A stretch of 333 bases of DNA. Origin: Escherichia coli. GTDB lineage: Bacteria; Pseudomonadota; Gammaproteobacteria; Enterobacterales; Enterobacteriaceae. The stretch's first letter is position 1; each line of letters begins with the position of its first letter. Under the pieces are notes generated by a model that ran no database searches, was not told where the DNA came from, and saw only the letters and a list, made by a program, of their open reading frames with translations. Positions 193-267 of the stretch are shown here, piece after piece. The stretch is from NCBI RefSeq assembly GCF_003334765.1, contig NZ_QOWT01000139.1, one strand, 5' to 3'. Position numbers and translations under genes: made by a program.

Positions 193-200
193 GTCAGGGC

Positions 201-217
201 ATTCTGATGAGCAGAAT
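201..217 (+). repeat. Short inverted repeat ATTCTG-N5-CAGAAT in the yeeT-cbeA spacer; potential 6-bp stem / 5-nt loop in the mRNA or a small dyad site
   Basis: Directly visible: 201-206 ATTCTG and 212-217 CAGAAT are exact reverse complements separated by ATGAG. The stem does not extend (200 C vs 218 T) and no T-run follows, so it is not a canonical intrinsic terminator. The repeat is certain; any function is speculative. Confidence 0.3.
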
Positions 218-255
218 TATCGCCACTACCGGACCATTCTTAACCGATTTTCTGT

Positions 256-260
256 GAGGA
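256..260 (+). promoter_or_regulatory. Shine-Dalgarno sequence (GAGGA) for the cbeA GTG start
   Basis: GAGGA at 256-260 is complementary to the 16S rRNA 3' end; a 7-nt spacer (TTTTATC, 261-267) separates it from GTG 268. Confidence 0.65.
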
Positions 261-267
261 TTTTATC

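Follow-up and report, generated by a model that had tools for sequence, protein, structure and literature searches.

The spacer between yeeT and cbeA and its surroundings

What does the short stretch of DNA between yeeT and cbeA consist of, and does anything in it bear on the expression of cbeA? The window analysed here, a stretch of 333 nucleotides from Escherichia coli, carries on its + strand the 3′ part of a yeeT-like DUF987 gene (1-192, frame 1 being open down to a TGA at 190-192; RefSeq WP_000692323.1 in the identical D8 locus) and the first 22 codons of cbeA (268-333, + strand, with a GTG start at 268). The translation of the latter, VSDTLPGTTLPDDNHDRPWWGL, is the N-terminus of CbeA, in agreement with the RefSeq annotation. 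A gap of 75 nt (193-267) separates the two genes. These identities and coordinates had been proposed in a first-pass annotation made from the letters of the window alone, and both the translation and the RefSeq record of the D8 locus bear them out.

A chromosomal locus of E. coli D8 matches the window at 100% identity, and RefSeq annotates the same two genes there, a DUF987 gene and cbeA, with 75 nt between them. The island concerned is P4-like and adjoins the kps capsule genes; its genes code, in order, for a GTPase, Ag43, DUF932, antirestriction, RadC/JAB and DUF987 proteins, CbeA, a CbtA-family toxin, and DUF5983, DUF957 and DUF4942 proteins. The yeeT-cbeA region of K-12, in CP4-44, is 96.4% identical to the window and has a gap of 73 nt. 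The position equivalent to the GTG start of cbeA in the window is occupied by ATG in three other loci (L014, L023 and L026).

An observation was made in passing on a paralogous pair of MG1655, ypjJ-yfjZ (L004, 4579-4615). The annotated stop of ypjJ is placed 20 nt upstream of ATGAGTATCACCCTGAACTGA, which matches the normal C-terminus and stop of DUF987 genes. Because the annotated stop precedes the normal end, ypjJ looks frameshifted, and its true gap to yfjZ would be of approximately 17 nt, to be compared with 18 nt between ykfH and yafW.

The spacer matches both ends of a gene locus that has probably lost its interior

When the spacer was used as a BLAST query, its matches split into two halves: query positions 2-39 hit the start of a gene that is intact in other islands, and positions 41-75 hit the region just upstream of cbeA. 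We use the working name geneX for this gene of 214 amino acids, found between the DUF987 gene and cbeA in related islands. DUF987-cbeA junctions were sampled at even steps down the BLAST ranking, over 5426 complete E. coli genomes, and ten junctions were aligned. The spacer of the window corresponds to both ends of the geneX locus, collinear and without the interior, and the split BLAST matches, as an independent check, agree with this alignment. Its parts were delimited by reference to three intact loci (L014, L022 and L011) and to one locus that keeps a 3′ remnant of geneX (L012).

Positions 193-206 are a vestige of the DUF987-geneX intergenic region. They represent 14 of its native 18 nt, a 4-nt deletion having trimmed the geneX Shine-Dalgarno sequence GGAAGGAG to AGGG; the sequences used for comparison, upstream of intact geneX in L014, L022 and L011, are GTCAGGAAGGAGATTCTG, GTCAGGAAGGGAATTCTG and GTCAGTAAGGGCACTCTG. 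The full 18 nt are kept in scar copies L006, L008 and L010. Positions 207-231 are the geneX remnant itself, made of the ATG, codons 2 to 8 (MSRIIATT with the start) and the first base of codon 9. It is identical to intact geneX at 24 of 25 positions with L014, and at 23 of 25 with L011 and L022, and its peptide is the N-terminus of protein P0034. Position 232 is the deletion junction, a single base of ambiguous origin, as the half-matches end at 231 and begin at 233. The remaining positions, 233-267, correspond to the final 35 nt between geneX and cbeA and include the cbeA Shine-Dalgarno sequence GAGG (256-259), 8 nt before the GTG at 268. This segment is identical at 31 of 35 positions to the same 35 nt in L011, L012, L013 and L022; every sampled E. 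coli architecture class has kept the GAGG core with its TTTATC spacer, except L024, where the region is shorter. All these elements lie on the + strand. From the local alignments and the coordinates, approximately 632-634 bp are missing relative to the intact loci.

The remnant shows signs of decay. The vestigial Shine-Dalgarno sequence has suffered a 4-nt deletion in the window and in L009, and a 6-nt deletion in K-12 (3 of the 7 scar copies sampled); the start codon ATG has become AAG in L008 and L010, and L007 is frameshifted. We conclude that the yeeT-cbeA spacer is very likely a deletion scar within a polycistronic island operon, and we give this reading a probability of about 0.85. The label "untranslated spacer" given to the region by the first-pass annotation is right in that there is a gap; what the alignments do not support is a spacer as the primary feature, since they resolve it into the remains of a deleted gene and the ribosome-binding site of cbeA.

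The series of events may be pictured as follows. The ancestral order would have been DUF987 (yeeT), geneX (214 codons for as many residues), cbeA and cbtA, with a gap of 18 nt before geneX and of 47-50 nt after it. A single deletion of some 632-634 bp would have taken out geneX from its ninth codon onwards, together with 14 nt beyond the stop, thereby fusing the translation-initiation region of geneX (193-231) to the 35 nt that close the geneX-cbeA intergenic region (233-267). The 3′ third of the present spacer, with its GAGG and 8-nt spacing, would direct initiation at the GTG on an mRNA presumably started upstream of the window. Only this 3′ third is probably still functional; the 5′ two-thirds are vestigial, and we infer that the scar as such has no regulatory role.

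RefSeq carries no annotation under the scar, either in K-12 or in any RefSeq match examined, and a search of the literature found no paper describing the scar or the geneX family. We also noted an exact 8-nt direct repeat, CTGATGAG, at 169-176, near the end of yeeT, and again at 204-211, where it covers the start codon left over from geneX; chance is the probable explanation.

The geneX family

The product of geneX is normally 214 amino acids long. NCBI names it "antitoxin of toxin-antitoxin stability system". The family is large, with 2706 homologues at E≤1e-5, and identity of about 60% extends out to alphaproteobacteria (Methylosinus, Tistrella, Pleomorphomonas). Examples of the gene are found at 2501-3145 in L014, in L018 and in L021, and proteins P0014, P0034, P0097, P0116 and P0017 are examples of the family. 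Across 22 aligned homologues, alphaproteobacterial ones included, the N-terminus MS(R/K)II(A/S/T)TTVY is conserved, and it matches the eight codons retained in the scar: the piece left behind is part of a genuine, conserved coding sequence.

The gene precedes cbeA in E. coli, Salmonella and Citrobacter; its place in Klebsiella michiganensis is between cbeA and cbtA. In some E. coli clusters, geneX and CbeA are joined in frame into a product of 342-343 amino acids. The one Tistrella locus examined (L021) carries geneX alone in an ICE-like context, with neither yeeT nor cbeA nearby. The gene thus seems physically tied to the CbeA/CbtA module; adjoining cbeA, placed between cbeA and cbtA in Klebsiella and fused to CbeA elsewhere, it is a possible third partner in this type IV toxin-antitoxin family, and may merit attention on that account.

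Searches for a known domain returned no match in Pfam-A, NCBIfam or PADLOC, and no sequence or profile match to the PDB below E = 0.49. The sole match was PHROG 5162, a family itself listed as of unknown function. An AlphaFold2 model built on the 22-sequence alignment had a mean pLDDT of 56, which is too poor for a fold search.

Distribution and age of the deletion

A census of the 5426 complete E. coli genomes counted the scar junction in 3028 and intact geneX in 1942. An exact copy of positions 201-236 is present in 2514 genomes, mostly as the K-12-type locus inherited by descent. The order DUF987-geneX-CbeA-CbtA-DUF5983 is encountered in several E. coli lineages, in Salmonella enterica and in Citrobacter, so that an intact gene sits in related loci at the very position of the scar.

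Gap lengths in the sampled junctions fall into classes: 73 nt in K-12, 75 nt in the window and L009, 78 nt in L007, 79 nt in L006, L008 and L010, 162 nt in L012 and L013, and a whole extra gene in L011. The junction is the same in all seven scars sampled, which differ by approximately 8.5% per site. The common junction, together with this divergence, points to a single old deletion, whose copies have diversified and spread since. Diversity among these seven copies is 0.085 for the spacer, compared to 0.147 and 0.12 at the third codon positions of yeeT and cbeA, respectively. The lower value in the spacer could reflect mild constraint or recombinational homogenisation, seven sequences not being decisive.

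Junctions of the 162-nt class (993-1154 in both L012 and L013) keep the last 110 nt or so of geneX and the full downstream intergenic region. Their left breakpoint falls immediately after the yeeT stop codon. Judging from these sequences, a second deletion, independent of the first, would have produced this class. Such junctions are very common, as query positions 533-684 match unannotated DNA in many genomes.

Transcription across the junction

The first-pass annotation found by eye no good sigma-70 promoter and no terminator in the gap, and proposed co-transcription of the two genes from a promoter upstream of the window. Systematic scans led to the same result. The consensus scan detected no promoter-like or terminator-like site on the sense strand of the window, no + strand site reaching 9 matches of 12. 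In a relaxed enumeration, the best + strand sigma-70 match was 8/12 (TTAACC-18-TATCGT, 240-269), and a transcript from it would start inside cbeA, downstream of the start codon, whereas a promoter serving cbeA would have hexamers 16-18 nt apart and a transcript that includes the cbeA Shine-Dalgarno sequence. As to rho-independent terminators, none was found in the window. Neither the hairpin at 182-199 nor that at 201-217 is followed by a T-run, and the former is therefore not a terminator.

In the D8 island, the DUF932 gene, the DUF957 gene and those between them share one strand, with gaps of 15-91 nt. Strong terminator-like hairpins, with stems of 11-12 bp, follow Ag43 (L001, 3708-3734), the DUF957 gene (7513-7539) and the DUF4942 gene (8553-8579); weaker + strand terminator-like matches also occurred, in a simple scan, inside the DUF932-DUF957 string. 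The first two strong hairpins would bracket a transcription unit of approximately 3.8 kb containing yeeT-cbeA-cbtA. A simple scan of the 280 nt that follow the hairpin at 3708-3734 found no consensus sigma-70 promoter. In published work, the operon is listed as yeeRST-cbeA-cbtA-yeeW (PMC7660256), and the genes upstream are said to seem part of the same operon (PMC5371832). Co-transcription of yeeT and cbeA from an upstream promoter would therefore be the simplest and best-supported reading, one that fits both the sequence and these operon listings.

The spacer might instead hold a transcription start, either a weak sense promoter serving cbeA-cbtA or an antisense promoter directed into yeeT. 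For a sense start, the best candidate is the 8/12 match described above, with its start inside cbeA. In favour of the antisense version, two 9/12 sigma-70-like matches are present on the minus strand, CTGACA-16-GAAAAT (274 to 247) and TTAAGA-16-GATAAT (243 to 216), compared to 0.3 expected in shuffles of the window. However, the -35 hexamer CTGACA is the complement of cbeA codons 1 and 2, individual hexamers match the consensus at only 4 or 5 positions of 6, and over the 5.2 kb of the island the count of such sites is that expected by chance (6 found, 5.4 expected). We consider a start within the spacer, in either direction, to be unlikely.

The 16-codon open reading frame is a probable by-product of the deletion

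Fusion of the two ends of the geneX locus left a 16-codon open reading frame on the + strand, at 207-257, which reads MSRIIATTGPFLTDFL and ends at a TGA (255-257) overlapping the cbeA Shine-Dalgarno sequence. We regard it as accidental. A translated and meaningful frame would be either a small protein, or a leader that terminates in the cbeA Shine-Dalgarno sequence, couples ribosomes to cbeA and sets the antitoxin level. Its ATG does have an AGGG upstream, and the frame is intact in 4 of the 7 copies (window, K-12, L006 and L009). The stop, 10 nt before the GTG, has a geometry that could in principle couple translation. Against this, the start has become AAG in L008 and L010 and the frame is shifted in L007, so that neither start nor frame is conserved across the seven copies, as would be the case for a functional small frame; moreover, the vestigial geneX Shine-Dalgarno sequence before it has lost 4-6 nt in three copies (the window, L009 and K-12). 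In the intact loci, the geneX stop is 47-50 nt before cbeA, and overlap of a stop with the Shine-Dalgarno sequence, with the coupling that might result, is therefore not ancestral. The K-12 small-ORF ribosome-profiling supplement of Stringer et al. contains neither the peptide nor its coordinates, an absence that weighs little as prophage genes are poorly expressed. Taken together, these data make a translated and meaningful frame very unlikely.

A related proposal would be that the deletion was not neutral, synthesis of CbeA having become coupled to the 16-codon leader in the islands that carry the scar, K-12 CP4-44 included, with the leader set directly against the cbeA Shine-Dalgarno sequence and its ATG lying in the loop of the dyad described below. 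If so, islands of the scar type and of the intact type would set different CbeA:CbtA ratios. We hold this to be very doubtful.

Two further observations concern reading frames in this region. In L007 (993-1070), a 1-nt deletion sets the vestigial geneX ATG in frame with cbeA, with a possible extension of CbeA by 20 residues at its N-terminus. In L011 (1011-1694; strain 219 and its relatives), TGC stands in place of the TGA that normally ends geneX; this adds 13 codons up to a TGA located inside the cbeA Shine-Dalgarno sequence and gives a product of 227 amino acids. Starting from this longer gene, we considered whether the 16-codon frame could be an in-frame fusion of its first and last codons, and rejected the idea. 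The 227-residue form is a read-through of the normal 214-residue gene, and the 3′ half of the spacer is consequently ancestral intergenic DNA, not coding sequence.

The inverted repeat probably belongs to the start region of the lost gene

An inverted-repeat scan recovered the dyad that had been pointed out by eye, ATTCTG-ATGAG-CAGAAT (201-217, + strand; arms 201-206 and 212-217), which is a perfect 6-bp repeat with a 5-nt loop. Its parts have a plain origin in the geneX locus: the left arm is the spacer between the Shine-Dalgarno sequence and the ATG of geneX, the loop (207-211) holds the ATG, and the right arm lies in codons 2 to 4 (aGC AGA ATt, Ser-Arg-Ile).

It had been suggested that this dyad forms a small RNA stem-loop or binds a protein. 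As a functional element, it would act either as an RNA hairpin modulating the translation or stability of the cbeA-cbtA message, or as an operator bound by a regulator. The repeat is perfect, and in dinucleotide-shuffled spacers a perfect 6-bp repeat with a loop of 3-8 nt occurs only 5% of the time. The proportion rises to 34% in shuffled 333-nt windows, however, and the repeat is barely beyond chance. The predicted RNA hairpin is weak (−4.3 kcal/mol, z = −1.16), 21 of 200 shuffles folding as well. Folding of the whole junction, a check recommended in the first-pass annotation, gave z = +0.36 and +0.58, no better than shuffles.

The dyad failed the test proposed in the first-pass annotation, conservation among orthologous spacers. 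All six pairs are kept in the window, K-12, L006 and L009, and in intact loci L014 and L022. A single pair is lost, without compensation, in L007, L008, L010 and L011, that is, in 3 of the 7 scar copies and in one locus with the whole gene. Elsewhere the dyad is degenerate, with 4 of 6 pairs in Salmonella and Citrobacter, 2 of 6 in L024 and Klebsiella, and 1 of 6 in Tistrella, and junctions of the 162-nt class lack it altogether. With 2 of their 12 sites variable, the arms have a diversity of 0.063, which cannot be told apart from the 0.089 of the rest of the spacer (16 of 67 sites). The commonest allele does have a perfect dyad, within the exact 201-236 copy found in the 2514 genomes, and common descent predicts the same.

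The properties of a structured cis-regulatory RNA are missing here: the junction folds no more stably than its composition accounts for, there are no compensatory changes, and there is no Rfam family, the only Rfam match being a chance snoRNA at 19.7 bits for a gathering score of 100. The dyad also lies some 50 nt upstream of the cbeA Shine-Dalgarno sequence, which it does not sequester. Nor does it behave as a toxin-antitoxin operator palindrome, as the inverted repeat is not conserved among orthologous loci and has no promoter to overlap. By qRT-PCR, no autoregulation was observed for the type IV operons encoding CbeA/CbtA, YafW/YkfI or YfjZ/YpjF (PMC5371832), and with this the main reason to expect an operator at this place is gone. 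A functional dyad is highly improbable in our view; it would rather be the start region of the lost gene than a regulatory element, as far as sequence comparison can tell.

Another inverted repeat, CCCTGA-N6-TCAGGG, extends across the yeeT stop (182-199) and has a predicted energy of −9.2 kcal/mol (z = −2.25). Only with the 4-nt Shine-Dalgarno deletion, in the window and L009, is the right arm TCAGGG unbroken; the other five copies, K-12 included, do not have it.

Direction of the event

The N-terminus encoded by the retained codons is shared with alphaproteobacterial homologues, where it is conserved, and geneX is found in Tistrella away from yeeT and cbeA; from these two points we infer that the scar derives from a deletion and not from an insertion of geneX. 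The reverse history, with a 75-79-nt spacer as the ancestral state and geneX inserted into some islands, could invoke the K-12 paralogues ykfH-yafW and ypjJ-yfjZ, where only 17-18 nt follow the DUF987 gene without any trace of geneX, but it is hardly credible: the scar carries the first eight codons of geneX, with the N-terminus shared by Tistrella, Methylosinus and Pleomorphomonas, the sole Tistrella locus examined (L021) has no yeeT or cbeA nearby, an insertion cannot account for a pre-junction sequence that encodes this N-terminus and has its own Shine-Dalgarno sequence, and a second, different truncation of geneX, which keeps its 3′ end (the 162-nt class), is present at the same site.

Meaning of the scar and comparison with known systems

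The scar is an unannotated instance of a familiar kind of feature, a mundane gene remnant, and is of little consequence for biology at large; it nevertheless clarifies a much-used model locus. Since the yeeT-cbeA gap of K-12 is the remnant of a conserved island gene, the CbtA/CbeA module of K-12 is a reduced version, the full module with geneX being present in roughly one in three complete E. coli genomes. In studies of cbeA-cbtA regulation, the dyad and the 16-codon frame should accordingly not be taken as designed features.

Among known features, the closest are the annotated remnants of the CP4-type prophages of K-12 (ykfN, of 63 nt, psaA, of 14 nt, yoeD and ypjI). In these as in the scar, a few codons of a once-intact island gene persist between intact neighbours, and the islands are of one P4-like family. 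Unlike them, the present scar is unannotated, keeps its start codon, and is fused to the ribosome-binding region of the next gene, from which the fortuitous 16-codon frame results. The intercistronic region of yeeRST-cbeA-cbtA-yeeW in K-12 CP4-44 is also close: it has the same genes in the same order, no promoter or terminator motif, and the cbeA Shine-Dalgarno sequence at its 3′ end. The window differs from it in being a D8-type allele (75 instead of 73 nt), in an island next to the kps capsule genes. The operon status of CP4-44 comes from database listings quoted in papers.

CbeA, a type IV antitoxin, is not known to bind DNA. The dyad resembles the operator palindromes of type II toxin-antitoxin systems in being a short inverted repeat that precedes an antitoxin gene; it differs from them in that it is not conserved and overlaps no promoter, and in that no autoregulation was detected by qRT-PCR (PMC5371832). 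Lastly, the 16-codon frame looks like a translationally coupled leader, being short and having a stop that overlaps the Shine-Dalgarno sequence of the next gene. In contrast to such leaders, it was made by a deletion, lacks an intact start or frame in 3 of the 7 copies, and corresponds to nothing in the intact loci.
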